64,000 bases of DNA from Deltaproteobacteria bacterium (GTDB taxonomy: Bacteria > Myxococcota_A > Polyangia > GCA-2747355 > JADLHG01), in contig JADLHG010000026.1 in NCBI GenBank assembly GCA_020848905.1, forward strand, positions 17,422 to 81,421. Reading direction: 5' to 3'. Positions 708 to 58,376 of this stretch are shown here, in pieces; within the stretch, counting starts at the first letter, position 1; each line of letters begins with the position of its first letter. Position numbers and translations under genes: made by a program. The notes beneath the pieces are model-generated. The model saw only the letters and a program-made list of their open reading frames with translations. It was not told the DNA's origin and ran no database searches.

Positions 708-2225
708 TCAGCGCGCGGCGATGGCCTCCCCATCCACGGTCAGCCACTCCGCAGGACCGAAACGCGCCACGAGGGCAGCCGCGAGGCGATCCGTATCCCC
801 GACGACCACGATCGTGGCGTCGGCAGGCCGGAGAAGACTCGCTGCGGCCCGACGCAGTCCCCGTGCGTCCAGGCGGGCCACCTGCTCGGGAAGCCGGCCG
901 AGCGCGTCCGCGGGACGGCCGTGCGTAGCCAGCTCCACCGCGGCGTTGAGCAACCCCGCCACCGTCTCGGCGCGCGCGGGCAGCTTCTCGACGACCAGCC
1001 GACGCCCCTTCCGGAGCTCGGCGGGAGGGACGTCGGTCGACCTCAAACGCTCGAGCTCGTAGAGCAGCTGGTCGAGCGCCGCGAGCGTGTCCTTCGTCGC
1101 CACCTGCGCCTCGGCGTAGAACTGGCCCGGCCCCCGCGGCTGGTCGAAGACCGCGTGCGCCCCGTAGGTGAAGCCGTGCCGCTCGCGCAGGTTCTCGTTC
1201 AGTCGGCTCGTGAAGCAGCCGCCGAGGATCGTCCCGATCAGCCGCACCGCCGCCTCGGAGGTCGCCGCGCGGGGCGGCAGGAGGTGTCCGACGCGGATTA
1301 CCGACTGGCTGGCGCCTCGTCGGCGGACCAGCACCAGCCGCGGGGAGCGCCGCGGCCCGACGCGCGCCGCATCGAGCTCGCGGGCCTCCGGCTCGCCCGA
1401 GGCCCGCTCCTCCGGCTTCTCCTCGCTCCCCTTCCAGTCGCCGAAGCGCGCGCGCAGGTTCCGCAGCAGGCGCTCGGGGACCACGTCGCCGACGGCCACG
1501 AGGACCACGTTCTCGGGGCGCACGTGCTGCCGGTAGAAGCGGCGCACGTCCTCCACGGTCAGGCGATCCACCTCGGTCGGCGTCGGGAGGAGCGGCCTCG
1601 CGTAGGGGTGCTCGCCGTAGAGGCTGCGACGGAGCGCGAGCGCCGCGACGCGGTCGGCGCGGGTCCGGCGCTGCTCTCCCCGCGCTCGGAGCTGCGTGCC
1701 GAGGCGCACGAACTCCTCCGCCTCGAGTCGCGGACGACGCACCACGTCCGCGAGCAGCGCCAGCACCTGCTCTTCGTGGCGGCTGAGCGCCTGGATCGAC
1801 ACGAGCATCGAATCCCAGTCGGCCGAGCTGTAGATGCTCGCGCCCATCTGCTCCAGCTCCGCGGCGAAGGAGAGCGCGTCGCGCGCTCCGGCCCCGCTCT
1901 CGAGCAGCTCGGCGGTGGCGTAGGCCAGGCCCACCCGCTGCGGCGGGTCGCTCGACGCCCCGCGCAGCACGAGCGCCCCCAGGCGCAGGATCGGCAGATC
2001 CCGCTTGGGGAGCATCCACACCTGCAGCCCGTTCTCGAGCCGCGTCACCGTCGCCACGGGGAACGGAAGCGCGCGCGCGGGACCGAGCGGCGGCCGCCGC
2101 TTCATGAAGACCGGCACGGCGACCGCCCCCCCGGCGGCGCCCGAGCGCGGCGCGCCGCAGGCGCAGGTAGCGAGCTGCGCGCCGAGGAGCGCCACGAGCA
2201 CGAGGAGCCTGAGCAACGCCGTCAC
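708..2225 (-). CDS. Peptidase M16 family protein (inactive/partner subunit type) with a lipoprotein-like signal peptide
   Basis: M16 domain features (LENGLQVWMLP...). A GTG start at 2225 gives the signal VTALLRLLVLVALLGAQLATCAC. The GTG overlaps the upstream TGA (GTGA coupling). The six-frame ORF extends further upstream, but that stretch is Arg/Gly-rich junk. Confidence 0.7.
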   Translation of the reverse strand: MTALLRLLVLVALLGAQLATCACGAPRSGAAGGAVAVPVFMKRRPPLGPARALPFPVATVTRLENGLQVWMLPKRDLPILRLGALVLRGASSDPPQRVGLAYATAELLESGAGARDALSFAAELEQMGASIYSSADWDSMLVSIQALSRHEEQVLALLADVVRRPRLEAEEFVRLGTQLRARGEQRRTRADRVAALALRRSLYGEHPYARPLLPTPTEVDRLTVEDVRRFYRQHVRPENVVLVAVGDVVPERLLRNLRARFGDWKGSEEKPEERASGEPEARELDAARVGPRRSPRLVLVRRRGASQSVIRVGHLLPPRAATSEAAVRLIGTILGGCFTSRLNENLRERHGFTYGAHAVFDQPRGPGQFYAEAQVATKDTLAALDQLLYELERLRSTDVPPAELRKGRRLVVEKLPARAETVAGLLNAAVELATHGRPADALGRLPEQVARLDARGLRRAAASLLRPADATIVVVGDTDRLAAALVARFGPAEWLTVDGEAIAAR

Positions 2226-3565
2226 TCCGCGGCTCCGTGGGCCGGCACGACCCAGAGCTGCACGCGACGCCTCAGATCGATCACGCGTCGACTGGCCGCG
2301 TGCACAGCCTCGGGCGTGGCCCGGCGAAAACGCGCCAGATCGCGGCCCAGGTAATCGGGTTGCCCGGTGAGCGCAAGGTAGCGGTTCAAGAGTTCGGCCC
2401 GCCGCTGCACCCGTTGCAGCCCGGCCACGAAGGCGGTCTCCACCTGGTTCTTCACCCGCTCGAGCTCGAGCGCCGTCGGCGGAGCGGCCAGAAAGCGCGC
2501 GAGCTCGCGCTCCACGACCCGGAGGAGCCTCGTCCGCGAGACCCCGGGCCGGGCCGTGACCTCCACCACGAAGGTGGAGGCGAGCTGACCGGAGTCCTGC
2601 CGCGCCTCCACGTCCAGCGCCACCTGCCGCTCGTAGACCAGCGCCTGGTGCAACCGCGAGCGCCGGCCCTCGGCGAGGAGCATCGCCGCGAGGTCCAGCT
2701 CCGCGTCCCCCGGAGTGAGCGCCGGAGGCGAGAGCCACGCCAGGTAGAGTCGCGGCGTCTTCACCCGGTCGGCGACGGTGCGCTGCACCGGGCGCCGGAG
2801 GCTCACCGGCGCGCGGTGGGGCGCGTCCACGGGGGGCGGGGCCGGGATCCAGGCGAAGTAGCGCTCCACGAGCCTCCGGGCGTGGGCGGGCTCGAAGTCC
2901 CCCGCCACCACGAGCGAGGCGTTGCGCGGCGTATAGAAGCGCCGAAAGAGCTCCTGCACGTCGCGGAGGGTCACGGCCCGCAGATCCGACGGCGAGCCGA
3001 TCACGGGCCAGCTATAGGGGTGTCCCTTGGGGTAGAGCAGGGTCGGTAACAGGAGCTGGGCCACGCCGTAGGGGGCGTTCTCGTAGTTCTGGCGGCGTTC
3101 GTTCAGCACCACCTCGCGCTGCAGGTCCAGCTTGCGCTGCGTGAGCGCGAGCGGGAGGGTGGCCATGCGGTCGGCCTCGATCCACAGGAGCCGCTCGAGC
3201 AGCCGCGACGGTCCGACGTCGTAGTAGACCGTCATGTCCTCGCTCGTGTAGGCGTTGTTCCACCCCCCGGCACGCTCCATCAGCTGATCGATCTGCTTCT
3301 CGGGCACGTTCTGCGAGCCCGAGAACATGAGGTGCTCGAAGAGGTGGGCCGCCCCCGACCGTCCTGCGGGCTCGTTGCGCGAGCCCACGCGGTAGAGCAC
3401 GTGGACCACCACGCGAGGCAGTCGGCGGTCGGCGTGGAGGATCACATCGAGGCCGTTCTTCAGGCGGAAGCGCTCGTGGGGAATCCCGAGCGGCGACGCG
3501 GTGGCGTCTCGTCCCGCGAGGAGGAGCAGCGCCACACAGCAGGCAACCGTCCGTCGGGGCATCAC
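2222..3565 (-). CDS. Peptidase M16 (pitrilysin/inverzincin) family zinc protease, active-site type
   Basis: HLFEHLMFSGS contains the inverted zinc-binding HxxEH motif. N-terminal signal peptide MMPRRTVACCVALLLLAG. Confidence 0.8.
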   Translation of the reverse strand: MMPRRTVACCVALLLLAGRDATASPLGIPHERFRLKNGLDVILHADRRLPRVVVHVLYRVGSRNEPAGRSGAAHLFEHLMFSGSQNVPEKQIDQLMERAGGWNNAYTSEDMTVYYDVGPSRLLERLLWIEADRMATLPLALTQRKLDLQREVVLNERRQNYENAPYGVAQLLLPTLLYPKGHPYSWPVIGSPSDLRAVTLRDVQELFRRFYTPRNASLVVAGDFEPAHARRLVERYFAWIPAPPPVDAPHRAPVSLRRPVQRTVADRVKTPRLYLAWLSPPALTPGDAELDLAAMLLAEGRRSRLHQALVYERQVALDVEARQDSGQLASTFVVEVTARPGVSRTRLLRVVERELARFLAAPPTALELERVKNQVETAFVAGLQRVQRRAELLNRYLALTGQPDYLGRDLARFRRATPEAVHAASRRVIDLRRRVQLWVVPAHGAAE

Positions 3566-3660
3566 GTATAAGCGTGACCCGACGGAGGAGGCGCGGCAAG
3601 GGCGGGGGCGCCGCCGCGCGCGCGAATCGAGCGAGCCGACCGGCCCGCGGGGTCAGAGTC

Positions 3661-3868
3661 CTCAGGTGCCGCCGAACCCGATGGTCACCTTGTCGGCCTC
3701 CACGATCACCGGCACGACGCGCCGCCCCTTGCTCGCGACGAGCATCGCGTCGAGCGCGTCCGGGTCGCGGCTCACATCGTGATAGGTGACGTCCTTGCCA
3801 GCGTAGGCCTCACGGGCCTTGGTGGTGTACGGTCAACCCGGCTTGCCGTAAATGATGATCTGACTCAC
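3661..3868 (-). CDS. Glutaredoxin/NrdH-like small redox protein with an in-frame TGA at the CxxC position. Candidate selenoprotein (U-P-Y-T).
   Basis: GTG start at 3868 with AAGGAGGAG 6 nt upstream. Translation is VSQIIIYGKPG-[TGA]-PYTTKAREAYAGKDVTYHDVSRDPDALDAMLVASKGRRVVPVIVEADKVTIGFGGT, with the Grx-fold order beta-CxxC-alpha-beta-alpha-cisPro(VP)-beta-GG. The TGA is at 3833..3835. It replaces the first Cys of the Grx YGKPGCPYC-type motif. Confidence 0.55.
3805..3819 (-). promoter_or_regulatory. SECIS-like hairpin (AGGCC-CGUGA-GGCCU) 13 nt downstream of the in-frame UGA
   Basis: The mRNA-sense sequence AGGCCCGUGAGGCCU forms a 5-bp GC-rich stem with a 5-nt loop containing GU. Flanking ACCA/UGG could extend the stem. 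Confidence 0.4.
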
Positions 3869-3913
3869 GCGCTCCTCCTTGCCGCGCACCGCGGCCGATC
3901 GTCGCACTTCGTC

Positions 3914-4561
3914 CTACAACGCGCCGACGAGGGCCTCGAGCCGACGCGGCAGAGTCTCCGGTTGCCGCCAGACCAGGTGGCGCAGGGCGTCGAGGAGCTG
4001 CTCGTGGACCCCCGGCTGGCTGCACTGAGCCAGGCGCAAGCGGCGTTCGAGCTGCCCCACCCCGTCGTCGATCCAGGCGTCGATCCGCTCGCGCGGCGCA
4101 TCCAGCGCGGCGGCGACGGCATCGCGCGCCAGCCCGTGGCCGTAGCGGAGCGCGAGCGCCACGCGGAGCGGCACAGGCAGCTCCTCGATCGCGACCCGCA
4201 GGAGGTCCGGCGTGAGGCCCGGTGGATAGGTCGCCCCGCGGGGCGTGCCGACCGGCTCGTCCCCCGTCGCGGCGTAGAGGCGCGCCCGCACCTCGGGGAG
4301 CGCAAGACCGCGCGCCACCCCGAGGAGCCAGTCCCGGAGCGAGCCCTCCAGCCGGAGGTGCAGGAGCTCGGTCACCGCTTCCGTGAAGGTCCGGTACGCC
4401 AGCTCCTCCGCCGCCTCCGCGCCGTCGGTGAGGTAGCGGCACGCCGCGTACACGGCCTGGCTGTGGTTGCGGATCAGCAGACTCGCCGCCTGCCGCAGTT
4501 GCCCGCCCCGAAGGGCGCTCAGCACGGCCTGGTCGGCGGGGGAATCGAGTCGGACCTCCAT
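3914..4561 (-). CDS. RNA polymerase ECF-type sigma factor (sigma-70 family, regions 2 and 4)
   Basis: ATG at 4561 (MEVRLDSPADQAVLSALRGG...). Region 2 and 4-like motifs. C-terminal LRVALALRYGHGLARDAVAAALDAPRERIDAWIDDGVGQLERRL. Confidence 0.7.
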   Translation of the reverse strand: MEVRLDSPADQAVLSALRGGQLRQAASLLIRNHSQAVYAACRYLTDGAEAAEELAYRTFTEAVTELLHLRLEGSLRDWLLGVARGLALPEVRARLYAATGDEPVGTPRGATYPPGLTPDLLRVAIEELPVPLRVALALRYGHGLARDAVAAALDAPRERIDAWIDDGVGQLERRLRLAQCSQPGVHEQLLDALRHLVWRQPETLPRRLEALVGAL

Positions 4562-4664
4562 GGGCCTCCGAAGGCGCGGGGAATGCCCCACCCCGCTGAC
4601 TCTGCCACCGGTGGGTTCGCCGAACAAGACGCGGAGCGCGCGCACCGCATGGGCGGTCGGGGCC

Positions 4665-6653
4665 CTACTTACAGAGGTAGGTGAAGCGATCCGTGTCGGA
4701 CCGCCCGGCGTAGTAGCCCCAGTGACGCGCGAGCAGCCGGCCATCCGGCGCGCGCTCGTACGAGAGCCTCATGGCGTGCGTGGCGTCGGCGGGGGCCCCG
4801 GAGTAGTACGAGGCGAGCTCCCCGGTCGCGTCGTACGAGAACGCGTGGAGCGACCCCGGAGGATAGAGCCGGGACAGGATACGGCCCGCCGCGTCGCGCG
4901 TGCGCTCCTCGAGCAGGTTGCCGTTGCGGTAGATGGCGATGCGCCGGCCACCGGCGGAGAAGCGGCGCTCGTGCAGCACGGGGGGCGGCAGGGTCGCGGG
5001 CAGCTGGCCGAGCCCCTCGGGGATCGCCCCCACCCCGTCGGTCGGCCGCGACGCGATGGCGTGGCGCGCGATCGTGTGCCGCGAGACCTCGGCCCCCTCG
5101 TAGGCCCAGCCGTGCTGCGCCACGAGCACGCCATTCATGCGGTACGCGCGCGTCACGAGCCTCCCGTCGCGGTCGTAGACGAAGGTCAGCGCCGTGACGA
5201 GCCGCTGGCCGTCCCGGTGGAGCAGGCGCACGTCGCTGGCTACGCGCTCGCCGTCCAGCGCGCGGGTGCGTTCGTACGTCACCGAGCCGTCGCTCCCCGA
5301 CAGCCTCTCGGCGACCATGCGGCCGAGCACGTCATAGGCGAGCTCCGCCCGCAGGACGGGCGCATCCCACACCGGGTGCCAGGCCATCCCTTCCACGCGG
5401 TCGTGCCCAAACCATCTATCGATCCCCGTGTCGTAGGCCGGGCCGAACCCGTAGTCGCCATCGAGGCCCGCCGGTCGATCCCCGACGGGCCAGCCCAGGG
5501 CGTAGACGCCGTCCGCCTCCGGGTAGCCGTAGCTCATGGCGTGAGGCAGCGTGGCGCAGCCGCCCGCGGCCGGCCGCTCGGGCCGCGCGGCCGTCCATTC
5601 GCGCTGGTGGAAGGCGGCGACCAGCGGCTCGAGGTCGTCGGAGCCGCGGAGCGCCCCCCCCTCCTGGTAGAGCTTCGGCGCGAGCTCGGTACGGCTCTGC
5701 TGCAGCCGACCGTCGGCCGCGTAGACCCACTCCTGTCGCGCCCACCGGGCTCCGTCCACCGCGCGCTCCACGGCGGTCAGTCGGCCCGCCGCATCGTAGG
5801 TGAAGTCGGCGCTCCCCACGCGCCCCGAATCGCGGTGCGTCACGGTGGAGCGGACGAGGCGATCCCCCCGGTAGCTCCACCGGCGCTCCGTGACGCCGGT
5901 CCGGTTGATACCATCCACGAAGCGCGAGGCCACGAGGCGCGCTCCGTCCCAGGTGTTGGTCCACGTGAACCACAGGGCGCCGCCGAAGTGGTAGCGGTCC
6001 TCGAGCAGGTGCCCGGCCCGGTCGAAGCGCCGTTCCAGGCGTCGCGCGGCGGTCGAGCCGTACTCCATCGCGAGCACCGTCACGTGGAGCTCGCCGGTGG
6101 TCGCGTGGCGCTTCGCGCGGATCGTGCCAGCCCAGCGTTCGCCTTCGAGGTCACCCGGTCTCGAGAAGGCCATCGGCGGTGGACGGTGGGTCCAGGCGCG
6201 GGCCACCGCGGGCAGCTCGACGAAGCAATCCCCGCCATCGCACGAGGTGCTCCCCGGCGCGGCGAAGAGCTCCAGCGGGGTCGGGAAGCCGTCCGTCACC
6301 CCGCCGCTCGTACGGCGCTCGAGGCGGCAGGAGCTCCCCTCGGCGGCACGCACCCAGGCGAGCAGCTCGGGGGCCAGCTCGGACCCCGGGTGCGCCGGTT
6401 GCGGAGCGCAGTAGCCGGTCGCCGCAGAGGGGGTGCCCGGCGGCGCCACTCCGGGAGGCGTCGGGCCCACCCCGGGTGTGGGAGCCGGGGGAAGGTGTTG
6501 CTCAGGGACCTCTGCCCGCGGGTCGCCCGTCTCAGGCAACCCGGGGCGCGAGCACCCCGCACACCAGAGCGACACCCCGAGCAGGGCGGCGCCGACCCCC
6601 GTGCTCCGCCCCACCGACCTACCGCTGTTTCGCGCTTCGCGTGTGTTCGTCAT
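4665..6653 (-). CDS. YD-repeat (RHS-family) lipoprotein
   Basis: Multiple YD repeats (YDAAGRLTAVER, YAADGRLQQSRTE, FVYDRDGRLVTRAYRMNG, SYDATGELASYY). N-terminal lipoprotein signal MTNTREARNSGRSVGRSTGVGAALLGVSLWCAGCS. AT-rich patch upstream. Confidence 0.7.
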   Translation of the reverse strand: MTNTREARNSGRSVGRSTGVGAALLGVSLWCAGCSRPGLPETGDPRAEVPEQHLPPAPTPGVGPTPPGVAPPGTPSAATGYCAPQPAHPGSELAPELLAWVRAAEGSSCRLERRTSGGVTDGFPTPLELFAAPGSTSCDGGDCFVELPAVARAWTHRPPPMAFSRPGDLEGERWAGTIRAKRHATTGELHVTVLAMEYGSTAARRLERRFDRAGHLLEDRYHFGGALWFTWTNTWDGARLVASRFVDGINRTGVTERRWSYRGDRLVRSTVTHRDSGRVGSADFTYDAAGRLTAVERAVDGARWARQEWVYAADGRLQQSRTELAPKLYQEGGALRGSDDLEPLVAAFHQREWTAARPERPAAGGCATLPHAMSYGYPEADGVYALGWPVGDRPAGLDGDYGFGPAYDTGIDRWFGHDRVEGMAWHPVWDAPVLRAELAYDVLGRMVAERLSGSDGSVTYERTRALDGERVASDVRLLHRDGQRLVTALTFVYDRDGRLVTRAYRMNGVLVAQHGWAYEGAEVSRHTIARHAIASRPTDGVGAIPEGLGQLPATLPPPVLHERRFSAGGRRIAIYRNGNLLEERTRDAAGRILSRLYPPGSLHAFSYDATGELASYYSGAPADATHAMRLSYERAPDGRLLARHWGYYAGRSDTDRFTYLCK

Positions 6654-7490: not shown

Positions 7491-7525
7491 GGCTAGCAGG
7501 CGATCCCGGCTAGTAGGCGATCCCG
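7491..7525. repeat. Imperfect 17-bp tandem duplication (CTAGCAGGCGATCCCGGC / TAGTAGGCGATCCCGGC) spanning the vWA gene stop codon
   Basis: Direct repeat read in the sequence. The second copy encodes the C-terminal AGIAY-stop. The first copy lies just downstream and would encode AGIAC-stop. Confidence 0.6.
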
Positions 7526-8760
7526 GCCTTCGGGCCTTGCGCCTTCAGCGCCTCGCCCACCTTGTCGTCAAAGGCGTCGCTGCGGACGCTCTTCCGCCGG
7601 GTCTTCAGGTATCCGTCGCGGGCCTTGGCCAGCTTCGCGATCTCCTCCTGGACCTCCTTCCGCTCGCGCGCCACGCGGTCCACGTAGGCCTGCCGCGCCG
7701 GCGCGGGCAGCGCGGCCACCTGCGGCGGGAGCTCTCGCGCCGCCATCCCCCCGAGGGCACGGCCACGCCCGAGCTTGCTCAAGAGGTCGGCGCCGTCGAT
7801 CGCCCCGCGGCGGGCGCGATAGGTCGCGCTCTCGGCCTGCGCCACCTCGTCCATCGACAGATTCGACCGGGCCCGCTCGCGGGCCGCGTCCTTCTCCGCC
7901 CCGCTCCCCGACGGAAGGAGCGTGGCCGAGAGCTTGCGGTTCAGCTCCGCCAGCCGTCGGTCGTGCGGCGTGGCCATCGCCACCATGCCGCCGTCCTGCT
8001 GGATGCTCGCGTACATGCCGCCCGCCACCCGGGCGATACCGCGCCACGCGGTGGCCGTCTCTTCCATCTCGCCACACCGCACGGCGTTGATCACGATCCC
8101 CTTCTGGCTCGCCTCGCGCGCCAGCTCCTTCGAGTAGAGGCCTCCGCGCCCCTCGTGCGGCGGCGCGTCCCCGACGAGGAAGATGAGCCGCAGGACGTCC
8201 TTGCCGTCGCGCCACTGCATGTTGCGGATCGCCTCGGCCAGCGCGCGGTTCACGTGCTCGGGGGTGTCCCCGCCCCCGGCAGCCTCGAAGCCCTGGAGGT
8301 TCTTGTACACGTCGTCCACCTCCTCCGAGAGCGCGTAGCGGCGCGTCACGTACGCGTCCCCCACGTCCCGATAGCCGATGAGGCCGATGCGCACGTGCGG
8401 CTTCGGCTGCCCCGAGAGCACCTGATTGGCGATGGACCAGATCTTCCGCTTCGCCCCGGCGAGGAGCCCCGACATGCTGCCCGTCGTGTCCACCGCGAAG
8501 ACCAGGTCGACCTGCGGGGACTTCTCCTCGGCCACGGGCCTCGGCGGCTCGGGCGCCACCGTCGGGCGCGTGGGCACCACCGGCGGCTTCACCGTGGCCA
8601 CGCGCGGCGGATGCACGGGGTGAGGGTCGACAAGACGCGGGTCCAGCCGGGCCACGAGGGCGCGGTCGCTCCGGCCGGCCAGCGCCAGAGCCACGACGGC
8701 GATGACCCCCGCGAGCGCCATCAACCCGACCGTCACGTTACGTCTACGCTGGGTGGACAT
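7510..8760 (-). CDS. von Willebrand factor type A (vWA) domain protein, membrane-anchored
   Basis: N-terminal TM helix (VGLMALAGVIAVVALALAG). MIDAS motif DLVFAVDTTGSMSG. Typical vWA spacing of downstream T and D residues. Confidence 0.8.
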   Translation of the reverse strand: MSTQRRRNVTVGLMALAGVIAVVALALAGRSDRALVARLDPRLVDPHPVHPPRVATVKPPVVPTRPTVAPEPPRPVAEEKSPQVDLVFAVDTTGSMSGLLAGAKRKIWSIANQVLSGQPKPHVRIGLIGYRDVGDAYVTRRYALSEEVDDVYKNLQGFEAAGGGDTPEHVNRALAEAIRNMQWRDGKDVLRLIFLVGDAPPHEGRGGLYSKELAREASQKGIVINAVRCGEMEETATAWRGIARVAGGMYASIQQDGGMVAMATPHDRRLAELNRKLSATLLPSGSGAEKDAARERARSNLSMDEVAQAESATYRARRGAIDGADLLSKLGRGRALGGMAARELPPQVAALPAPARQAYVDRVARERKEVQEEIAKLAKARDGYLKTRRKSVRSDAFDDKVGEALKAQGPKAGIAY

Positions 8761-18193: not shown

Positions 18194-18365
18194 ATCGTCG
18201 CACGGCACGGGCCCACCTGCCGTTCTGGCGGCCCGCTCGCGGCAATTCTTGACAGATTGGCACGGCTTGGCCAGGCTAGGTTCCGCTCGGTGCGGCCAAG
18301 GCCCCGCCACAACTCAACTCCACGCCCCCTCGAGGGTGGCACATCGCTTGCTGAACAACTCCCCG

Positions 18366-19658
18366 ATGCCGCGTACGTTCCGCTCTCCTCGTCGTGTGGG
18401 GTTTCTCCTCGCGTGGGCCGCCCTCCTGCTTGCGCCGTCGGCCGCCCATGGGGCCTTCGCGGTCCGCGCCATCGAGCTCGACGACGCGGACGGCCGCATC
18501 GCCACCTCGAAGCTCCTCGAATACTTCAACCTGGCCCGCTGCCGCTGCGACCACCCGGTCAAGGTGATCGTGCGCATCACCCCCGACCTGGCGGCCAAGG
18601 GGCGCCTGCGCATCGTGAGCGGTCAGAGCTGCCTGACCACCACCGACAACAAGATCAAGCCCGAGTGCCGCGTGCTCTTCGCCGGCAAACTCAACGAGCA
18701 GCGCACCGATCTCTTCATCGACACCTCGGCCGCGCAGCTCATGACGAAGAGCGGCGGCTCGTGCGAGGCCAGCGAGGAGCTGGACTACACCATCTCGGTC
18801 TTCACCGACGTCGACGACGAGAAGTGGACCGAGAACGCGAGCAAGCTGACCTACTCCGTGGACACCAAGCGCCCCGTGGCCCCTTCGGCCGCGAAGAACA
18901 GCGACGGGACGACCCGAGCGCCCGAGGCGGGGGAGAGTCTGGTCAAGGTGAGCTTCGAGCAGCCGACCACCTCCGCCGAGAAGAACGTGAAGTACCAGCT
19001 CCTCTGCGAGCGCGTGAAGGACGGCCAGCCGGTGCTCGCGAGCCCTCCGGGGGCGGAGTACAAGACCCGGGCGTTGCTCAAGCAGTGCCGAGGGAGCGCC
19101 ACGACGAGCGACGGCGGCAGCCCGAGGGCCGACAGCCGCGCAGCCGACGCGGCGCCCCGCGATGGCGGCGTCGCGGAGGCCGGCACGAAGGAGGCGGGAG
19201 CCACCGAGGCCGGCCCCCGAGACGCGGGGACCCCCGACCAGGCAGCGCTCTCGCCGGACGCGAGCAGCTCGCTCCCCACCGGGATCGCCGAGCTGGACCC
19301 CCGCTATATCTGCTCCGCGGGCTTCCAGTCGGCCGGCAGCTACGACATCGCCGGCCTCGAGAACGGCCTGGCCTACCGCTTCTACGTGGTGTCGATCGAC
19401 CAGCGGGGCAACCCGAGCCTCCCGGCCGAGCTCGGTGAAGCCACGCCGCACCTCGAGGAGGACCTCTGGGAGCGCTACAAACGAAAGGGCGGTCAGGCCG
19501 AGGGGTGCGCGGTGAGCGAAGGACGCGGCGGGGCCCGACAGACCGTCGTCTCGGTGGCTTCGCTGCTCCTCGCGAGCCTCGTCCTCGGCGGCGTCTGGCT
19601 GGCACGACGCACCACCCGGCGACGCCGCGCCGGCGCCGCGAAGAAGGACGCGCCATGA
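18366..19658 (+). CDS. Secreted protein with a C-terminal MYXO-CTERM-like sorting signal
   Basis: Signal peptide MPRTFRSPRRVGFLLAWAALLLAPSAAHG. The C-terminus GGQAEGCAVSEGRGGARQ-TVVSVASLLLASLVLGGVWLA-RRTTRRRR has the Cys, Gly-rich, TM, basic-tail layout of MYXO-CTERM. Confidence 0.65.
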   Translation: MPRTFRSPRRVGFLLAWAALLLAPSAAHGAFAVRAIELDDADGRIATSKLLEYFNLARCRCDHPVKVIVRITPDLAAKGRLRIVSGQSCLTTTDNKIKPECRVLFAGKLNEQRTDLFIDTSAAQLMTKSGGSCEASEELDYTISVFTDVDDEKWTENASKLTYSVDTKRPVAPSAAKNSDGTTRAPEAGESLVKVSFEQPTTSAEKNVKYQLLCERVKDGQPVLASPPGAEYKTRALLKQCRGSATTSDGGSPRADSRAADAAPRDGGVAEAGTKEAGATEAGPRDAGTPDQAALSPDASSSLPTGIAELDPRYICSAGFQSAGSYDIAGLENGLAYRFYVVSIDQRGNPSLPAELGEATPHLEEDLWERYKRKGGQAEGCAVSEGRGGARQTVVSVASLLLASLVLGGVWLARRTTRRRRAGAAKKDAP

Positions 19659-20407
19659 TCTCGAGGATCGCGCTTTGCGCCCTCGCCGTGGGGCTGGTCG
19701 GGTCTCGGACCGCTCCGGTCCACGCCGCCGAGAAGAACGGCGAACCGAGCTACGCCAGCCCGCAGCACTTCGCCGTGGAGTTCAAGCTCGGCCCCTACGC
19801 CCCGAACATCGACAGCGAGTTCGGCGGCAGCGCCACCCCCTTCAAGGACATCTTCGGGGACGGCACGGGGCTCATGATCCGCGGCGAGCTCGACTACCAG
19901 TTCTGGGGCGGCTTCGGGAGCATCGGCGCGGGGCTCCAGCTCGGCTACTACGGCAAGTCGGCGCAGGCGCTGCAGGACACGGGCTCGGGCGGCGGCACGG
20001 CGGCCTCGGCCGGCGAGACGGGCATCACCCTCTTTCCGATCTCGCTCCTCGCGGTCTACCGCTTCGACGTGCTGGCCAAGCGCTTCAAGGTCCCGCTCGT
20101 CCCCTTCGCCAAGTTCGGCCTGAACTACACGCGCTGGTGGATCTTCAAGGGAGACGGCGGCGTGGCCAGCTTCGAGGGACACAAGGCCGCCGGCGGCACC
20201 TTCGGCTGGCAGGTGAACCTCGGCGGCGCCTTGCTCCTCGACATCTTCGAGCCCAGCGCCGCCAAGAACCTGGACAACGAGCTCGGCATCAACCACACGT
20301 ACCTCTTCTTCGAGTTTCAGCACATCGCCTCGGACGGCCTCGGCGCGAAGCACGCGCTGCGCGTGGGGGCCACGACCTGGCAGGCAGGCCTGGCGTTCGA
20401 ATTCTAG
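19655..20407 (+). CDS. Outer-membrane beta-barrel protein (OmpA-like 8-strand barrel type), secreted
   Basis: Signal peptide MISRIALCALAVGLVGSRTAPVHA. Alternating amphipathic strands. Terminal aromatic residue (…GLAFEF). ATGA overlap with the upstream gene. Confidence 0.6.
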   Translation: MISRIALCALAVGLVGSRTAPVHAAEKNGEPSYASPQHFAVEFKLGPYAPNIDSEFGGSATPFKDIFGDGTGLMIRGELDYQFWGGFGSIGAGLQLGYYGKSAQALQDTGSGGGTAASAGETGITLFPISLLAVYRFDVLAKRFKVPLVPFAKFGLNYTRWWIFKGDGGVASFEGHKAAGGTFGWQVNLGGALLLDIFEPSAAKNLDNELGINHTYLFFEFQHIASDGLGAKHALRVGATTWQAGLAFEF

Positions 20408-41521: not shown

Positions 41522-44074
41522 TCAGCCCCAGTGGATCATGGCCGGGAAATAGGGATGCACGAGATCCGCATGCGCGGGGAGCACCCGGAGCGAGTGGCCG
41601 TGCTGCCCGCTCATGCGACACGGAATGGCCCCGGCGTAGAGGTGCTCGCCCTCCCCGAGAGACTCGAGGTAGCCCATGGTGATGGCCGACCCCTTCTTGA
41701 TGCGGCCCTGCCCGTCGAGGGGCCCGTGGTAGAGCTGCACGGCCACTTCCTCGGGGGTGAGCGTCCCGAGGTGGACCACCGCCGTGACCCGCAGCGCCGC
41801 CCCCACCTCGAGCTCTCCGACGGTGTCGGAGCGCACCTGCCGGATGGAGATCTCCGCCCAGTGGGCGCGCAGTCGCCCCAGCCACTCGGCGAGGTCGCGG
41901 GCCCGTCGCAGGTTGTCCCCCGAGAGACGCAGCATGCGTCGACTCGCCGGATGGTAGAAGCGCTGCATGTAGTCGGCCACCATGCGGTCGGTGTTGAAGG
42001 CCGGACAGACGGTGCGGATCGAGCCCTTCATGCGCGCGATCCAACCGCGAGGCAGCCCGTCCCTGCCGCGGTCGTAGAAGAGCGGCACCACCTCCTTCTC
42101 GAGCAGGTCGTAGATGGCGTGCGACTCCACCTCGTCCTGCATCTGGTGGTCCTCGTAGACCTCCCCGTGGCCGATGGCCCACCCGTTGTGCGCCTCGACC
42201 GCCTCGGGCCACCACCCGTCGAGGATCGACATGTTGATGCCGCCGTTCGGCGGGACCTTCATGCCGCTCGTGCCGCTCGCCTCCATCGGCCGCCGGGGCG
42301 TGTTCAGCCACACGTCGCACCCCCGCACCAGCCTGCGCGCCACGTGCATCCCGTAGTCCTCGAGGAAAACGATGCGCCGCCGGAGCAGGGGGTCCCGCGC
42401 GTGATGGATCACCTGCCGGATGAGTTCCTTGCCCGCCGCGTCGCGTGGGTGCGCCTTGCCGGCGATGACCACCTGCACGGGTCGGTCGTGATCCCCGACG
42501 ATGCGCTTCAGTCGCTCGAGGTCCCGGAAGAGCAGATACGCGCGCTTGTAGGTGGCGAAGCGTCGCGCGAAGCCGATCGTCAGCGCCTCGGGGTCCAGCA
42601 CCTCGCGCGCGTGCTCCACCTCCGCGAGGGGCTCGCCGCGCCGCTGGAGCTGCGCCGCCAGCCGCCGCCGCGCGAAGTTGACCAGCCGCGCGCGCTGCCG
42701 CTCGTGGATGCGCCAGAGCTCCTCGTCGGGGATCGCCGCCACGCGTTCCCACGCCGCGGCTCCGGTGTCGAAGTCGCGCCACCTCGGCCCGAGGTACCGG
42801 TCGAAGAGCTCCACCATGTCCCCGGAGATCCAGCTCATAGTGTGCACGCCGTTGGTCACCGACGCGATCGGGACCTCGTCCTCGGGCAGGCCGGGCCAGA
42901 TCCCCGCCCACATCTTGCGCGAGACCTCGCCGTGCAGGCGGCTCACCCCGTTGCTGTAGGCCGCGCAGCGCAGCGCGAGCACGGTCATGCAGAAGGGCTC
43001 GGCGGTGTCCCGCGGGTCGATGCGGCCGAGCCCGAGGAAGCCGTCGCGATCCAGCCCGAGCTTGGGCCAGTAGTCGCGCAGGTACTTGTCCACGAGCTCC
43101 GCCGCGAACATGTCGTTCCCGGCCGGCACGGGGGTGTGCGTGGTGAAGACGTTGCCCGCGGAGGTGGTGAGCCGCGCCTCGGTGAAGCTCGCCCCCGTCC
43201 GCAGCATGACCCGCCGGATGCGCTCGAGGGCCTGGAACGCCGAGTGCCCTTCGTTCATGTGGCAAACGGTCGGCTCGATGCCGAGGAGCGCGAGCAGCCG
43301 CTGTCCGCCGATCCCGAGCAGGATCTCCTGCTGCATGCGCATCTCGGTGTCGCCACCGTAGAGCTGCGCGGTGATCTCGCGGTCCGCGAGGCTGTTCTGC
43401 TCGAGGTTCGTGTCGAGCAGGTAGATCGGCACGCGCCCCACAGCGAGGTGCCAGACCTGCGCCACGACCGTCCGTCCGGCGAGCTCGACGGGGACCGTGA
43501 TCGGCGCCCCCGCCTCTCCGCGCACGAGCTTGAGCGGCAGGTTGAAGAAGTCGTTCTCGGGGAAGCGCTCCTGCTGCCACCCGTCCACGTTCAGGTACTG
43601 CTGGAAGTAGCCCACGCGGTAGAGGAGGCCCACGCCGACGAGGGGGAGCCCGAGGTCGGAGCTGGACTTGATGTGATCGCCGGCGAGGATCCCGAGGCCC
43701 CCCGAATAGATCGCCAGGCTCTCGGTCAGCCCGTACTCCGCCGAGAAGTACGCGATGTTCAGCGGGTCGTCACCGTAGTGCCGTTCGTACCAGGTAGAGG
43801 CCTTCTTGTAGCGCTCGAGCTGCTGCGCAACCCGCTGCATGTGCGAGAGGAAGCCTTCGTCGTGGGCCACCTCCTCGAGGCGCTCCTGGCGAATCGAACC
43901 CAGCACCCGCACGGGATTGTGCAGCGAGCTCTCCCAGAGGTCGGGCTCGAGGCGCTGGAAGAGCGAGATGGCGTCGTGGGACCAGCACCACCAGAGGTTG
44001 AACGCCAGCGTGCGCAGGGGCTCGAGCCTCCCCGGCAGCGCAGGCACGACCACGAACTTGCGAATGGTCGACAT
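41522..44074 (-). CDS. glgP: Alpha-glucan (glycogen/maltodextrin) phosphorylase, GlgP type with a DUF3417-like N-terminus
   Basis: ATG at 44074 with a GGAGGAGG RBS. N-terminus MSTIRKFVVVPALPGRLEPLRTLAFNLWWCWS. GT35 core (YFSAEYGL, GGLGILAGDHIKSSSDLGLP). Confidence 0.8.
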   Translation of the reverse strand: MSTIRKFVVVPALPGRLEPLRTLAFNLWWCWSHDAISLFQRLEPDLWESSLHNPVRVLGSIRQERLEEVAHDEGFLSHMQRVAQQLERYKKASTWYERHYGDDPLNIAYFSAEYGLTESLAIYSGGLGILAGDHIKSSSDLGLPLVGVGLLYRVGYFQQYLNVDGWQQERFPENDFFNLPLKLVRGEAGAPITVPVELAGRTVVAQVWHLAVGRVPIYLLDTNLEQNSLADREITAQLYGGDTEMRMQQEILLGIGGQRLLALLGIEPTVCHMNEGHSAFQALERIRRVMLRTGASFTEARLTTSAGNVFTTHTPVPAGNDMFAAELVDKYLRDYWPKLGLDRDGFLGLGRIDPRDTAEPFCMTVLALRCAAYSNGVSRLHGEVSRKMWAGIWPGLPEDEVPIASVTNGVHTMSWISGDMVELFDRYLGPRWRDFDTGAAAWERVAAIPDEELWRIHERQRARLVNFARRRLAAQLQRRGEPLAEVEHAREVLDPEALTIGFARRFATYKRAYLLFRDLERLKRIVGDHDRPVQVVIAGKAHPRDAAGKELIRQVIHHARDPLLRRRIVFLEDYGMHVARRLVRGCDVWLNTPRRPMEASGTSGMKVPPNGGINMSILDGWWPEAVEAHNGWAIGHGEVYEDHQMQDEVESHAIYDLLEKEVVPLFYDRGRDGLPRGWIARMKGSIRTVCPAFNTDRMVADYMQRFYHPASRRMLRLSGDNLRRARDLAEWLGRLRAHWAEISIRQVRSDTVGELEVGAALRVTAVVHLGTLTPEEVAVQLYHGPLDGQGRIKKGSAITMGYLESLGEGEHLYAGAIPCRMSGQHGHSLRVLPAHADLVHPYFPAMIHWG

Positions 44075-44157
44075 GCCTCCTCCCCTCTCCGTCGGGGCGC
44101 AGCATGCCAGCCGCGAGGAGGTCGAGCAACCCCCCGCGCGTGCGTGCCACGCCGCGA

Positions 44158-45672
44158 TCAGCGCCGGCGGGCGAAGAAGAGGGCGAGTCCGAGGAGGAGC
44201 GGCAGGAGCAGGCCGAGGTCGCGGCCACCGCCTGCGCCGAGACGACAGCCCCCCACGCGGTCGGCGAGGTCCGCCGGCGGGCCGCACACCGCGTCGGCAC
44301 CGTCGGGGAGACAGGTCGCGCCGGCAGCGCACGCCGCGCCGCTCTTGTTGCAGCGGGCGGTGCAGTACGAGAGGTTCGTGAGCGGGTCCACCAGGCAGAG
44401 GCCCGTGCTGCAGTCGTTGGCGGTCTGGCACGCGGCGCCGAAGTCCCCCGCGTCGAGCCGCGGCCGACAGATCCGCTCCACGCAGTGGTAGCCCGCTCCG
44501 CAGGCGCTGTTCGCCGTGCAGGCCTGCGTGCAGTACCCGGCCCGCTCCTCCGAGGTGCCGAAGCAGAGCTTGCTGCCGCACTGCTGGCTCTCCGTGCACG
44601 CGGTGCCGAAGGTTCCGGCCCCCGCCGAGACGCTGTCGCCGCCGCGCACCCTCACCGTCACGAGCGCCGAGGCGACGCTGCCGCCGTGCGTCTGCACCAC
44701 CGCCTGAAGGACGCGGTTTCCGCCCCGCAGGGGGCCGATCTCGAACCTGAACGGAGCCTGGCGCTTGCTCGCCGCCACCGTCCCGTCCACGAGGAGGTCC
44801 ACCCGCAGCAGCGCGGGGCTGCTGGCCAGCACCGAGACCTCCACGCGATCCGCCGCCTCGAACCCGCTCGTGGGGCTCAGAATCAGCACGTCGCCGAGGT
44901 CGTGGTCCCCGGCGGCGCGGGGCGCGCGCTCCAGCGCCACCTGGCGGGTGATCCACGCGCGAAAGATGTCCACGCGCATGTCGTTCCCCTCGTCGCCGCA
45001 GCTCCCACCCTTGGTGGAGTGCACGCCGAGCAGGATGGGCCGTCCCTCGCGCAGGGCGAAGGTCGGCCCGCCGGAGTCGCCGTCGCAGATGTTTCCGGCG
45101 GAGGCCGCCGCGCCGTACACGGTGAAGAGCTGGTCCGTCACGGTCCCGACGGTGTTCGTGGCCCGCCGCTTGACGCCGAAGCTGCCCTGCCCCTCGAGCG
45201 GCTTGCCGAACCCCACGAGCACGACGCTCTCGCCCACTCGCGGCGCGCGCGTGGCGAGCTCGACCGGCTCGATCCCGCCGACGTCCTCCATCAGCCGCAC
45301 CACCGCCAGGTCGGCATCGTTGCCACCCACGTAGCTCGGGTGCATCGTGACGGTCGCCGCGGCGAAGCGGGGCCCTTGCAGACCGGAGGGGTAGAAGACC
45401 ACCGGCCCCTGCCCCGCCACGCAGTGACCCGCCGTGATCAGCGTGCGGCGCCCGACGAGCGTGGCCGTGCAGCCCGAGTTCGAGCCGGTCCCCGCCACGA
45501 CGATCGCCCCGACCGCGGCGAAGCCCGACTCCGGCGCACCGTTAACGATGGCCGAGGTACGACTCGTCAACTGGGTCTCGGGGTGCGCGGAGTCCCCCGC
45601 GCAGGCCGCCTGGCCGAGCATGAAGGCCGCGGTCAGTAGCCGGAGCATCAGGGGACCGCTGGAGCGTCGCAT
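44158..45672 (-). CDS. Secreted trypsin-like (S1) serine protease with C-terminal Cys-rich modules and a MYXO-CTERM-like tail
   Basis: Catalytic triad TAGHC / D / GDSGGP. Signal peptide MRRSSGPLMLRLLTAAFMLGQAACAG. C-terminus GGCRLGAGGGRDLGLLLPLLLGLALFFARRR. Confidence 0.8.
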   Translation of the reverse strand: MRRSSGPLMLRLLTAAFMLGQAACAGDSAHPETQLTSRTSAIVNGAPESGFAAVGAIVVAGTGSNSGCTATLVGRRTLITAGHCVAGQGPVVFYPSGLQGPRFAAATVTMHPSYVGGNDADLAVVRLMEDVGGIEPVELATRAPRVGESVVLVGFGKPLEGQGSFGVKRRATNTVGTVTDQLFTVYGAAASAGNICDGDSGGPTFALREGRPILLGVHSTKGGSCGDEGNDMRVDIFRAWITRQVALERAPRAAGDHDLGDVLILSPTSGFEAADRVEVSVLASSPALLRVDLLVDGTVAASKRQAPFRFEIGPLRGGNRVLQAVVQTHGGSVASALVTVRVRGGDSVSAGAGTFGTACTESQQCGSKLCFGTSEERAGYCTQACTANSACGAGYHCVERICRPRLDAGDFGAACQTANDCSTGLCLVDPLTNLSYCTARCNKSGAACAAGATCLPDGADAVCGPPADLADRVGGCRLGAGGGRDLGLLLPLLLGLALFFARRR

Positions 45673-45733
45673 CGCCCACATAATGGTGCAAAGGTCAGAC
45701 CAGCCCCCACACGGGTCGCACACCACACTAAGT

Positions 45734-45743
45734 GCGCAATATT
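45734..45743. promoter_or_regulatory. Perfect 10-bp palindrome GCAATATTGC in the lower-GC region upstream of the S1 protease gene
   Basis: Read directly. Lies in the 195-nt gap between the protease start (45672) and the lgt stop (45867). Candidate operator. Confidence 0.3.
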
Positions 45744-45866
45744 GCTTGTGAGCTTCGGCTCGGTGGCCCATCCCACGCTCCGGCACGACGGCTTCTCCTT
45801 CAGCCACCCGTCTCGCGAGTCCCCAGCACCGCCTGCCACCGGCGGGCGCCCATTAGCCGCGCCGCG

Positions 45867-58038: not shown

Positions 58039-58376
58039 GCGGGTTCCTCCTCTTGAGCCTGAGGCTAAGCATTTCCCAGGCCAGATGACCAGCGTTGGCA
58101 CATGGGGTCGGCAGCCCCAGGGATGGCCCGTCTAAGCGCCTTGAACCAGTGACATCTACGCGGGACGCGGGGCCTTTCCACGATCGTCGGATCCTCGTCC
58201 GGACGGGGGGACGACTGTGCCCGAAGTGCCCGGCCCGCTGGGGTCATCCGTCCCCGTCCCGAGAGGGGGAACGGGCCTCCCGGTGGTGGGTAACTATCCT
58301 ACATCCCCCGGAAATTTGGGAGGCGATCTCTCGCATGGTATCCAGGCTTTCCACCCCCAGAGGAGGGAGCCGACCC

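Follow-up and report, generated by a model that had tools for sequence, protein, structure and literature searches.

A probable member of UXX-star selenoprotein family 1 with two predicted selenocysteine codons

The DNA analysed here, a 64-kb stretch referred to below as the window, carries a minus-strand gene that very probably decodes TGA as selenocysteine (Sec), at two positions rather than one, as judged from the codon patterns of the gene and its relatives. [quoted passage not shown] It is not a new gene: the family is catalogued, curated and named by the NCBI pipeline. An earlier note on this DNA had proposed a candidate selenocysteine-containing glutaredoxin-like protein. The gene does not go unrecognised, given its passing score against the curated NF041114 model, the names that NCBI gives to its homologues, and the entry for the family in a 2026 review (PMC13188914).

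Gene structure and family membership

The predicted coding sequence consists of GTG, ten codons, UGA (Sec12) with Pro-Tyr-Thr, 53 further codons ending in GFGGT, and UGA (Sec69), Gly, Leu and a UGA stop codon. Its elements are as follows.

3872..3880, minus strand: Shine-Dalgarno sequence AAGGAGGAG, 3 nt before the GTG start codon (read off the sequence)
3868..3866, minus strand: GTG start codon (read off the sequence)
3653..3868, minus strand: predicted full coding sequence, 71 codons plus stop (translation, NF041114 score and codon comparison with the relative L001)
3833..3835, minus strand: predicted first Sec codon, UGA (Sec12) (aligned to the CPYC motif of 2KLX; TGA in relatives)
3662..3664, minus strand: predicted second Sec codon, UGA (Sec69) (conserved TGA, two codons and stop after GFGG[T/S] in family loci)
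3653..3655, minus strand: predicted true stop, UGA, after Gly70-Leu71 (read off the sequence, and family comparison)

The strong ribosome-binding site described in the earlier note is confirmed in the sequence (3880..3872), with its GGAGG core 5 nt upstream of the GTG start. The predicted product is MSQIIIYGKPGUPYTTKAREAYAGKDVTYHDVSRDPDALDAMLVASKGRRVVPVIVEADKVTIGFGGTUGL. U-P-Y-T falls at codons 12-15, the glutaredoxin active-site position, and the full form has two Sec residues. The 3' end of the gene reads TGA GGA CTC TGA (3664..3653), a Sec-X-X-stop ending. The open reading frame of the earlier note is present, but its left coordinate was one base off, the apparent stop being 3664..3662; this TGA, taken there as the end of a 68-codon frame, would be the second Sec codon, two codons before the true stop. 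The absence of an alternative start that preserves the fold is borne out, as the next in-frame start codon (GTG, 3775..3773) yields only a 37-aa fragment without strand 1 and helix 1. Only 5 residues of the protein lie beyond the GG turn, which leaves no room for a C-terminal helix.

With Sec written as Cys, the product scored 99.9 bits against NF041114 (cutoff 72, E 6.8e-29), and the match spans residues 4-68 of the protein and positions 1-67 of the 70 in the profile. It also passes the parent model NF041212 (81.2 bits, cutoff 66) and Pfam PF00462 Glutaredoxin (34.6 bits, cutoff 22.9), in agreement with the glutaredoxin fold that had been recognised by eye. The best PDB match is 2KLX (E 3.9e-6), in which the first TGA, as had been proposed for 3833..3835, is aligned with the first Cys of CPYC (query ygkpgCPYttkar against YTRPNCPYCKRAR in 2KLX). 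In common with UXX-star family 1, the window protein has a length of ~70 aa, G-K-x-x-[U/C]-P-Y-T, VPVIV, two Sec residues and the ending GFGG[T/S]-U-G-[V/I/L]-stop. The last residue is mostly Val or Ile in the family and is Leu here; nothing substantial differs.

[quoted passage not shown] The review cites Haft & Tolstoy 2025 (mSystems) as its source for the other UXX-star families, and for NF041114 it cites the GOS 2008 paper, from whose main text the present family name is absent. We found no biochemical work on any NF041114 member in the literature, and PMC13188914 lists the family without experiments.

The window protein can be separated from its nearest neighbours among known families. 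UXX-star families 2 (NF041211) and 3 (NF047338) and the HUGP/GUXX-star fusion (NF045501) share with it the glutaredoxin-like scaffold and the Sec-X-X-stop end, and align with it from end to end, but it falls below their cutoffs (61.3 vs 100, 49.5 vs 97 and 51.6 vs 325, respectively). Classical dithiol glutaredoxins with CPYC (2KLX; E. coli Grx3, 1FOV/3GRX) share the PF00462 fold family and the nucleophile position, and the window protein also keeps the P-Y of their motif, the cis-Pro-type VP and the GG turn. Unlike them, it has Thr for the second Cys, as the earlier note had correctly read, lacks the C-terminal helix and carries a second Sec on its tail. It misses the cutoffs of the glutaredoxin equivalogs TIGR02181 (35.6 vs 90) and TIGR02180 (18.7 vs 87.25) and of NrdH-redoxin TIGR02194 (22.6 vs 85.75 bits), having UPYT in place of the dithiol C-x-x-C. 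The Sec-containing glutaredoxin of Clostridium oremlandii, which has UxxC (Kim et al. 2011, as cited in PMC13188914), has the nucleophile position in common with the window protein but retains the second motif Cys where Thr is found here.

Relatives were collected from two sources. The automatic pattern used to scan a genome collection demanded a Cys codon at site 1 and thus returned only Cys forms, with TGY at site 1 in 59 genome loci. Sec forms were recovered from a metagenome collection using a hand-made pattern that demanded TGA at site 1, which gave at least 120 matches. Among the 120 metagenome matches listed, 114 are full family members with both TGAs, the first being required by the pattern itself. 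Thr never varies at the second CxxC position in the family, and no other Cys column is conserved.

Possible roles of the two selenocysteines

Sec12, at the start of helix 1, would take the nucleophile position. The resolving Cys is replaced by Thr in every family member, and Sec69 would be the only other conserved redox residue, placed on a Gly-rich tail directly after the GG turn; in glutaredoxin folds this turn lies next to the active site. With Thr in place of the resolving Cys and Sec69 near the active site, an intramolecular Sec12-Sec69 diselenide would form, and in members with Cys at site 1 a selenenylsulfide would take its place. On this fold reasoning, we put the chance that the protein works as an intramolecular Sec12-Sec69 redox couple at somewhat below even. 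The narrower proposal, that the two residues form a genuine intramolecular diselenide whose resolving residue comes from a mobile C-terminal tail rather than from the CxxC, is a tentative one that draws on the same reasoning.

The tail would act like that of mammalian thioredoxin reductase, whose C-terminal Gly-Cys-Sec-Gly-stop is thought to shuttle electrons to and from a buried centre. Both proteins have a near-terminal Sec, a flexible Gly-rich tail and a SECIS outside the coding sequence (the second of two predicted in the window gene). The mammalian enzyme, however, has an unrelated fold and belongs to another domain of life; its Sec is partnered by the adjacent Cys, whereas the presumed partner lies 57 residues away here, and it relies on a eukaryotic SECIS and SBP2 where the window gene has a predicted bacterial SelB hairpin.

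The main functional alternative to a redox couple keeps the same gene and the same two Sec residues, but has them bind a soft metal or metalloid (Hg, As, Cu, Se) as a bis-selenolate ligand, in a chaperone or sequestering protein. Haft and colleagues, as reported in PMC13188914, suggest that Sec in UXX-star proteins may serve as metal-binding ligands; possible metal binding was the only function for Sec in these proteins that we found in the literature, and we found no diselenide proposal. The flexible Gly-rich tail and the lost resolving Cys would also suit a chelating site. Gene neighbourhoods were compared for 176 loci (among the matches listed) by running BLAST all-against-all on their flanking ORFs. 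Some subfamilies adjoin a gene for an ABC-transporter ATPase (in 17 loci) or for an ArsR-like regulator (in 15), both named by eye from motifs, which would fit a metal-related role. Against this, no metal-resistance genes adjoin the window gene, which lies beside a sigma-70-like gene and two M16 peptidase genes, and among the matches listed no neighbour is kept in more than 24 of the 176 loci. Proteins built on a glutaredoxin fold and carrying their nucleophile at this position are, moreover, typically redox enzymes. We regard the metal-ligand reading as possible but not probable.

The largest cluster of flanking ORFs consists of spurious GC-rich antisense ORFs, and none of the clusters includes the neighbours of the window gene. 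With real clusters reaching 24 loci at most, functional inference from operon structure was rejected. The window also encodes TldD and a VWA protein.

The second UGA codon and its predicted hairpin

The earlier note had proposed a mono-selenol glutaredoxin of 68 residues, with a single Sec at U-P-Y-T and its end at the TGA at 3662-3664. In favour of this reading, TGA is the commonest true stop in the window and the gene-caller products in the database all end in ...GGT. The family loci argue strongly against it. Among the matches listed, TGA, two codons and a stop follow GFGG[T/S] in 173 of 176 loci and the first of these positions is never TAA or TAG, whereas the later stop is a free mix (in the first 63 loci, TGA 35, TAG 15 and TAA 13). 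The two codons in between are conserved and encode Gly followed by Val, Ile or Leu. Exceptions at site 2 include L031, with Ser, and L040, with Cys (TGC) at the very position of the second TGA. The UXX-stop ending is also what defines the curated family. To these points is added a hairpin with a GGU-type loop at a fixed distance, described below. We therefore consider a 68-residue product very unlikely: the second Sec is almost universally conserved and appears to have a SECIS of its own in the 3' UTR.

A bacterial SECIS hairpin is predicted after each of the two UGA codons, and the first of them behaves as a SECIS in comparisons among relatives.

3805..3819, minus strand: predicted SECIS 1, AGGCC (3819..3815)-CGUGA-GGCCU (3809..3805), inside the coding sequence (minimum-free-energy fold; covariation)
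3631..3648, minus strand: predicted SECIS 2, GCGGGCC-GGUC-GGCUCGC, in the 3' UTR (minimum-free-energy fold; family hairpin conservation)

Taken singly, the window hairpins fold no better than shuffled sequence. The AGGCC-CGUGA-GGCCU hairpin pointed out in the earlier note, 13 nt downstream of the first TGA, is present and is the minimum-free-energy fold of its stretch, but the folding energies are unremarkable against shuffles (z = +0.22 for 61 nt, -0.60 for the 36-nt SECIS 1 stretch and +0.62 for the 43-nt SECIS 2 stretch). Single-sequence folding is uninformative in DNA of 71% G+C, and comparative tests were used for this reason; the significance of the hairpins comes entirely from comparison with relatives. 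A search of the whole window against Rfam gave 0 hits, with no family match for the hairpins. In the fdhF SECIS of E. coli the apical loop is GGUC, and G23 and U24 contact SelB. Both window hairpins resemble this type in starting 13 nt past the final base of UGA, SECIS 2 has the loop GGUC, and SECIS 1 has G and U at +23/+24; they differ from the fdhF type in their shorter stems, of 5 and 7 bp, and in having no evident bulged U.

The stem of SECIS 2 (7 bp including one G-U pair) begins 13 nt past the end of the second UGA and 4 nt after the true stop; it is not followed by a U-run and we found no terminator-like site. Among the matches listed, a perfect hairpin occurs at this place in 168 of 169 distinct loci, with a mean stem of 7.2 bp (5.0 in shuffles) and stems of at least 6 bp in 88% (39% in shuffles). 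In 141 loci the loop begins at +19..+23. It is most commonly GGUC, GGU, GGC or GUC, while the stem sequences all differ. The loop of the window hairpin begins 2 nt further from UGA than the family mode.

The first UGA codon, decoding and annotation

SECIS 1 has a 5-bp stem beginning 13 nt after UGA, and, counting from the U of UGA, positions +23/+24 in its loop are G and U. The earlier description of this hairpin as SECIS-like is supported by the relatives: among the matches listed, it covaries in 116 TGA-bearing sequences and is absent from 58 Cys-bearing ones. At least 4 of the 5 pairs can form in 62% of the Sec forms vs 3% of the Cys forms, and GU or GG stands at +23/+24 in 116/116 vs 8/58. 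The covariation score is 0.255, compared with 0.141 in shuffles (0/500), with 48 cells in which both sides have changed; in the Cys-form control, 42% of cells are paired. All 116 Sec forms encode the Arg of the loop by CGU, AGG or CGG and none by CGC, the codon used in 37 of the 58 Cys forms. The closest relative of the window gene, L001 (85% identical), retains both TGAs and has a synonymous compensatory change in this stem, from G-C to A-U.

These data also bear on whether the gene is a pseudogene or an assembly error, i.e., a Cys-type glutaredoxin-like gene in which TGY was mutated to or misread as TGA. This organism contributes a single sequence and Cys forms do occur in the family, as such a reading would allow. 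An independent contig (L001/L002) nevertheless has the same TGA, as do 114 further contigs among the matches listed. The flanking DNA of L001 and the window gene cannot be aligned, and over the entire frame, the stretch ahead of the first TGA included, the two genes differ by 28 synonymous-only and 12 non-synonymous codons, a dN/dS-like pattern that indicates purifying selection both before and after the TGA. The ribosome-binding site and start codon are intact, and the window gene has the RNA signature of Sec forms (the hairpin and the CGU Arg codon), which is missing from Cys forms. We judge an error or a decayed gene to be highly improbable.

Neither selA, selB, selD nor tRNA-Sec was found within the 64-kb window: ARAGORN detected 0 tRNAs in it, and 40 window ORFs, chosen by GC3, gave no match to a SelA, SelB or SelD family in NCBIfam. 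Decoding outside the Sec system, by near-cognate read-through or by reassignment to Trp or Gly, would fit this lack of machinery in the window but is scarcely credible, as TGA terminates 22 of the 38 predicted genes there, we know of no TGA reassignment in Myxococcota of 71% G+C, Cys (the standard counterpart of Sec) replaces both positions in relatives, and SECIS-type hairpins track the TGAs. TGA is thus the commonest ordinary stop in the window, which points to a standard genetic code. No other in-frame TGA with coding signal on both sides was found in the window; the search required 40-codon flanks, so that a TGA close to the end of a gene, as happens in the target gene, would escape it.

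With Sec at both UGA codons, decoding may be pictured from the anatomy of the gene. Translation would begin at GTG 3868. At UGA 3835-3833, the in-frame hairpin at 3819-3805 would recruit SelB and Sec-tRNA(Sec), and Sec12 would be inserted. At UGA 3664-3662, the hairpin at 3648-3631, with its GGUC loop just past the true stop, would direct the insertion of Sec69. Gly and Leu would then be added before termination at UGA 3655-3653. A Sec three residues from the end means that the second SECIS can lie wholly in untranslated RNA.

Being a textbook example of an already curated selenoprotein family, the gene has small discovery value, and its practical value lies in annotation. The full-length homologues returned from a large public protein collection were all cut at ...GGT, and double-Sec forms appeared only as fragments of 42-44 aa. 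These fragments, which start after the TGA, are the database proteins nearest to the window gene, as would be expected of a gene that ordinary gene callers miss. Proteomes of MAGs from Myxococcota, Acidobacteriota (Vicinamibacterales) and Desulfobacterota that come from ordinary gene finders therefore systematically under-report the protein. The family is abundant, with at least 120 matches to one metagenome pattern, and is a reasonable target for studies of natural diselenides or of the rules of bacterial SECIS placement beyond a stop codon. If Sec12 and Sec69 do form a diselenide, this very widespread 71-residue protein would join the few diselenide redox proteins found in nature and would have an unusually low potential.

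Structure and family membership of the gene

The minus-strand frame that opens at GTG 3868 translates as MSQIIIYGKPG-TGA-PYTTKAREAYAGKDVTYHDVSRDPDALDAMLVASKGRRVVPVIVEADKVTIGFGGT-TGA-GGA-CTC-TGA. Its features are as follows.

3880..3872, minus strand: ribosome-binding site AAGGAGGAG, 3 nt 5' of the GTG (read from sequence)
3868..3866, minus strand: start codon GTG (read from sequence)
3835..3833, minus strand: first TGA (translation)
3819..3805, minus strand: SECIS 1, AGGCC-CGUGA-GGCCU, 13 nt past the first TGA (minimum-free-energy fold of the stretch)
3664..3662, minus strand: second TGA (translation)
3655..3653, minus strand: third TGA, the true stop (translation)
3648..3631, minus strand: SECIS 2, GCGGGCC-GGUC-GGCUCGC (minimum-free-energy fold)

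An earlier note had proposed a glutaredoxin-like protein with a single selenocysteine (Sec) at the first TGA, followed by a hairpin, and had taken the second TGA as the stop codon, with its left coordinate one base off. The TGA, the frame and the hairpin are all present, the first TGA lying where the note had put it. As it also stated, no alternative start rescues the protein; the nearest in-frame start after the first TGA (GTG, 3775..3773) gives a 37-residue fragment that lacks strand 1 and helix 1.

The protein was scored against profile models with Sec written as cysteine.

Profile scores of the protein
NCBIfam NF041114, "UXX-star selenoprotein family 1" (equivalog): 99.9 bits, cutoff 72, E 6.8e-29
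NF041212, "Uxx-star family glutaredoxin-like (seleno)protein": 81.2 bits, cutoff 66
UXX-star family 2: 61.3 bits, cutoff 100
UXX-star family 3: 49.5 bits, cutoff 97
YruB: 36.9 bits, cutoff 88.55
Glutaredoxin 3: 35.6 bits, cutoff 90
Pfam Glutaredoxin PF00462: 34.6 bits, cutoff 22.9
NrdH: 22.6 bits, cutoff 85.75

The gene is thus a typical member of a family that is already known and curated. Review PMC13188914 tabulates NF041114 with the motif UxxT and two Sec, and one database homologue (P0004) is already named "UXX-star (seleno)protein family 1" by NCBI. The nearest solved structure, 2KLX (E 3.9e-6), is an ordinary CPYC glutaredoxin; in this alignment the first TGA matches the first cysteine of CPYC, as the earlier note had expected, and Thr15 matches the second. 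"UXX-star" denotes Sec-X-X-stop, which directed attention to the 3' end of the gene, where GGT-TGA-GGA-CTC-TGA reads exactly as U-G-L-stop. This is very probably a genuine selenoprotein gene, and the core call of the earlier note was right.

Conservation of both UGA codons

Codons at the C-terminal site were tallied in 63 records, from the DNA of 60 genome loci (all with cysteine at the first site, since the search pattern demanded a Cys codon) and of the closest relative (L001/L002). Past the GG turn, 61 of the 63 records have TGA as their first stop, and in 60 the frame continues for exactly two codons beyond it (Gly-Val in 47, Gly-Ile in six; the window has Gly-Leu). The final stop varies freely among TGA (35), TAG (15) and TAA (13). 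Among the loci listed, the only family members without the C-terminal Sec are L040, with cysteine (TGC GGG GTT TAA, about 2700-2725), and L031, with serine (TCA GGG GTC TGA, about 6200-6215). At the sequence level, a conserved TGA together with an orthologue that has cysteine in its place and a true stop that varies is the classical selenoprotein signature. TGA-XX-stop occurs in 173 of 176 family records among the matches listed. The single-Sec reading of the earlier note missed the second Sec and the SECIS in the 3' UTR. Related Myxococcota with the C-terminal TGA include Anaeromyxobacter oryzae (L018) and Anaeromyxobacter MAGs (L030, L050).

A hand-made pattern demanding TGA at the first site (ATHTWYGGNAAR-N6-TGACCNTAYAC) was run on metagenome contigs and matched at least 120 of them. 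Among the 120 matches listed, 114 are complete family members, every one of which (114/114) also carries the C-terminal TGA-XX-stop. The window protein is 85% identical to that of L001, and both TGAs are unchanged between the two genes, while the 60 nt upstream are just 32% identical. Across the whole frame 28 codon changes are synonymous only and 12 are non-synonymous; the 11 codons ahead of the first TGA account for four and three of these, the latter all within the first three codons. This pattern indicates that the first 11 residues share one translated frame with the remainder and are part of the protein, so that one refuting condition named in the earlier note does not apply.

All 20 full-length database homologues end in ...GGT (19 as ...GFGGT or ...GF[A/D]GGT, one as ...GYGGT), and the three database proteins nearest to the window protein are fragments of 42-44 aa that start past the first TGA. 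Both are the expected output of ordinary gene callers on a double-TGA gene. Every called homologue among P0001-P0023 is truncated, in keeping with the earlier claim that standard gene callers would not see the gene. The double-Sec homologues in this set appear only as the 42-44 aa fragments, labelled "glutaredoxin" or "hypothetical protein".

Two covarying hairpins at SECIS-like distances

From the window sequence alone, hairpin folding energies are no better than those of dinucleotide shuffles (z +0.22, -0.60, +0.62), and a 5-bp GC stem by itself proves nothing because the DNA is 71.4% G+C. We therefore compared 116 Sec forms (TGA at the first site, among the matches listed) with 58 Cys forms. 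Numbering starts with the U of UGA as position 1, and the stem in the window joins 17-21 to 27-31. Loop codons were compared between L064-L183 and L004-L062 at alignment columns 28-30 of A2/A3 (+22..+24 from UGA1).

SECIS 1 in Sec forms and Cys forms (shuffles in brackets)
At least 4 of 5 pairs formed: Sec 62%; Cys 3%
Cells paired: Sec 74.8% (68.3 ± 0.7; 0/500 as high); Cys 42.4% (39.6 ± 1.3; 15/500)
Cells changed on both sides: Sec 48 (16.0 ± 3.3; 0/500); Cys 15 (9.9 ± 2.3; 17/500)
Covariation score: Sec 0.255 (0.141; 0/500); Cys 0.126 (0.083; 6/500)
Codon at 22-24: Sec, all Arg, CGU 62, AGG 32, CGG 22, CGC 0; Cys, CGC 37/58, with Leu, Ile or Lys in place of Arg in some
GU or GG at 23/24: Sec 116/116; Cys 8/58

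When the 3' partner is slid by 1-3 columns in the Sec forms, paired cells fall to 25-56%. Positions 21 and 27 are third-codon positions on both sides, and their pairs in Sec forms are C-G (74), U-A (26), U-G (6) and A-U (1). Comparing L001 with the window, AAG/GCC becomes AAA/GCU, both changes being synonymous and a G-C pair becoming A-U. As judged from these alignments, the Arg codon of the loop is cleanly constrained at the RNA level. The fdhF element of E. coli contacts SelB through its loop bases G23 and U24; the likeness of positions 23/24 here serves only as a lead.

The window gene belongs to the majority SECIS 1 class. About 38% of Sec forms (~44/116; peptide UPYTxAAREDY..RR), for example L065, L080, L095, L103 and L168, lack the window-type 5-bp hairpin; a GCCGCC/GGCGGC stem of longer range seems to replace it. 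Many of them can pair GCCGCC with GGCGGC ~16 nt apart (+16..+42 from UGA1). One Cys form (TGT), from a Syntrophus sp. MAG (L034:3723-3770), keeps a Sec-type hairpin, AGGCC-CGGUC-GGCCU, and looks like a recent Sec-to-Cys switch.

SECIS 2 starts 13 nt past the end of the second UGA and 4 nt past the true stop. Among the matches listed, 168 of 169 distinct loci have a perfect hairpin at this position, with a mean stem of 7.2 bp (5.0 in shuffles) and stems of at least 6 bp in 88% (39% in shuffles). Stem sequences are unrelated among the 169 loci, while the loop starts at +19 to +23 in 141 of them and is most commonly GGUC (25), GGU (19), GGC (16) or GUC (16). An intrinsic terminator at this position is ruled out, since no U-run follows the window hairpin and the search for terminator-like sites called none. 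In L031 a CGGCA-GGU-UGCCG hairpin lies further 3'.

Genomic context and a proposed redox centre

The neighbouring reading frames are as follows.

3914-4744, minus strand: sigma-70-like ORF, 276 aa, 45 nt upstream (TIGR02937 37.9, below the cutoff of 42.9)
2222-3565 and 708-2738, minus strand: two tandem M16-type peptidase-like ORFs, the first 87 nt downstream

No terminator-like sites were found across this stretch, and the sigma-70-like ORF, the selenoprotein gene and the M16 ORFs may form one transcription unit. Relatives do not share this arrangement; in L001 the neighbours are PilZ and histidine-kinase genes on the opposite strand. Of 176 loci (matches listed), at most 24 share any real neighbour family; by eye these families are ABC ATPases, nucleoside-diphosphate kinases, ArsR-like regulators and histidine kinases. 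Gene context thus gives no clue to function. TGA ends 22 of the 38 predicted genes of the window, indicating a standard genetic code. The 64-kb window yielded no tRNA, no Rfam family, no SelA, SelB or SelD and no further candidate in-frame TGA.

Elsewhere in the window, an adjacent MXAN_2561-family MXYO-CTERM-anchored protein (weak, below cutoff) and MXAN_2562-family outer-membrane beta-barrel (231.8 bits) at 18249-20407 (plus strand) are Myxococcota markers and assign the window to that phylum. The best named relative of the window TldD is from a Myxococcales MAG (72% identity; Archangium 61%). A gene identical to that of the VWA-domain protein (7510-8760, minus strand) lies on contig k141_128646 (11.6 kb) of ENA metagenome assembly ERZ27258500, and a TldD in ENA data (P0024) is 98% identical to that of the window, indicating repeated sampling of this organism or of a close relative. 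The alpha-glucan phosphorylase ORF (41522-44956, minus strand; 1144 aa; TIGR02094 865.6 bits) matches only from residue 306-401, reflecting either a long N-terminal extension or a start called too early, and overlaps another GC3-rich ORF (44158-45807). A long ORF at 58095-61367 (plus strand) has no family match and contains tandem repeats of 63 bp (3.4 copies) and 51 bp (2.2 copies) at 60475-60772; the long minus-strand ORFs over it (GC1 0.85-0.92) look like spurious antisense frames.

By the known bacterial route of Sec insertion, SelB loaded with Sec-tRNA(Sec) would bind the matching hairpin when the ribosome reaches each UGA; SECIS 2 can sit wholly in untranslated RNA because just two codons follow its UGA. 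In glutaredoxins the GG turn lies at the edge of the active site. Thr takes the place of the motif's resolving cysteine in all family members, and Sec69, two residues past the GG turn, is the one further redox residue that is conserved. From this fold reasoning we tentatively propose Sec12 as the nucleophile and Sec69 as its partner, with an intramolecular diselenide as the redox centre (a selenenylsulfide in members with cysteine at the first site); the proposed tail is reminiscent of that of thioredoxin reductase. The main functional rival, which we hold to be somewhat less likely, is a bis-selenolate metal or metalloid site; a review (PMC13188914) suggests that Sec in UXX-star proteins may serve as a metal ligand. 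The remaining worth of the gene lies in a warning for annotation and in pointing to an abundant protein with two predicted selenocysteines.
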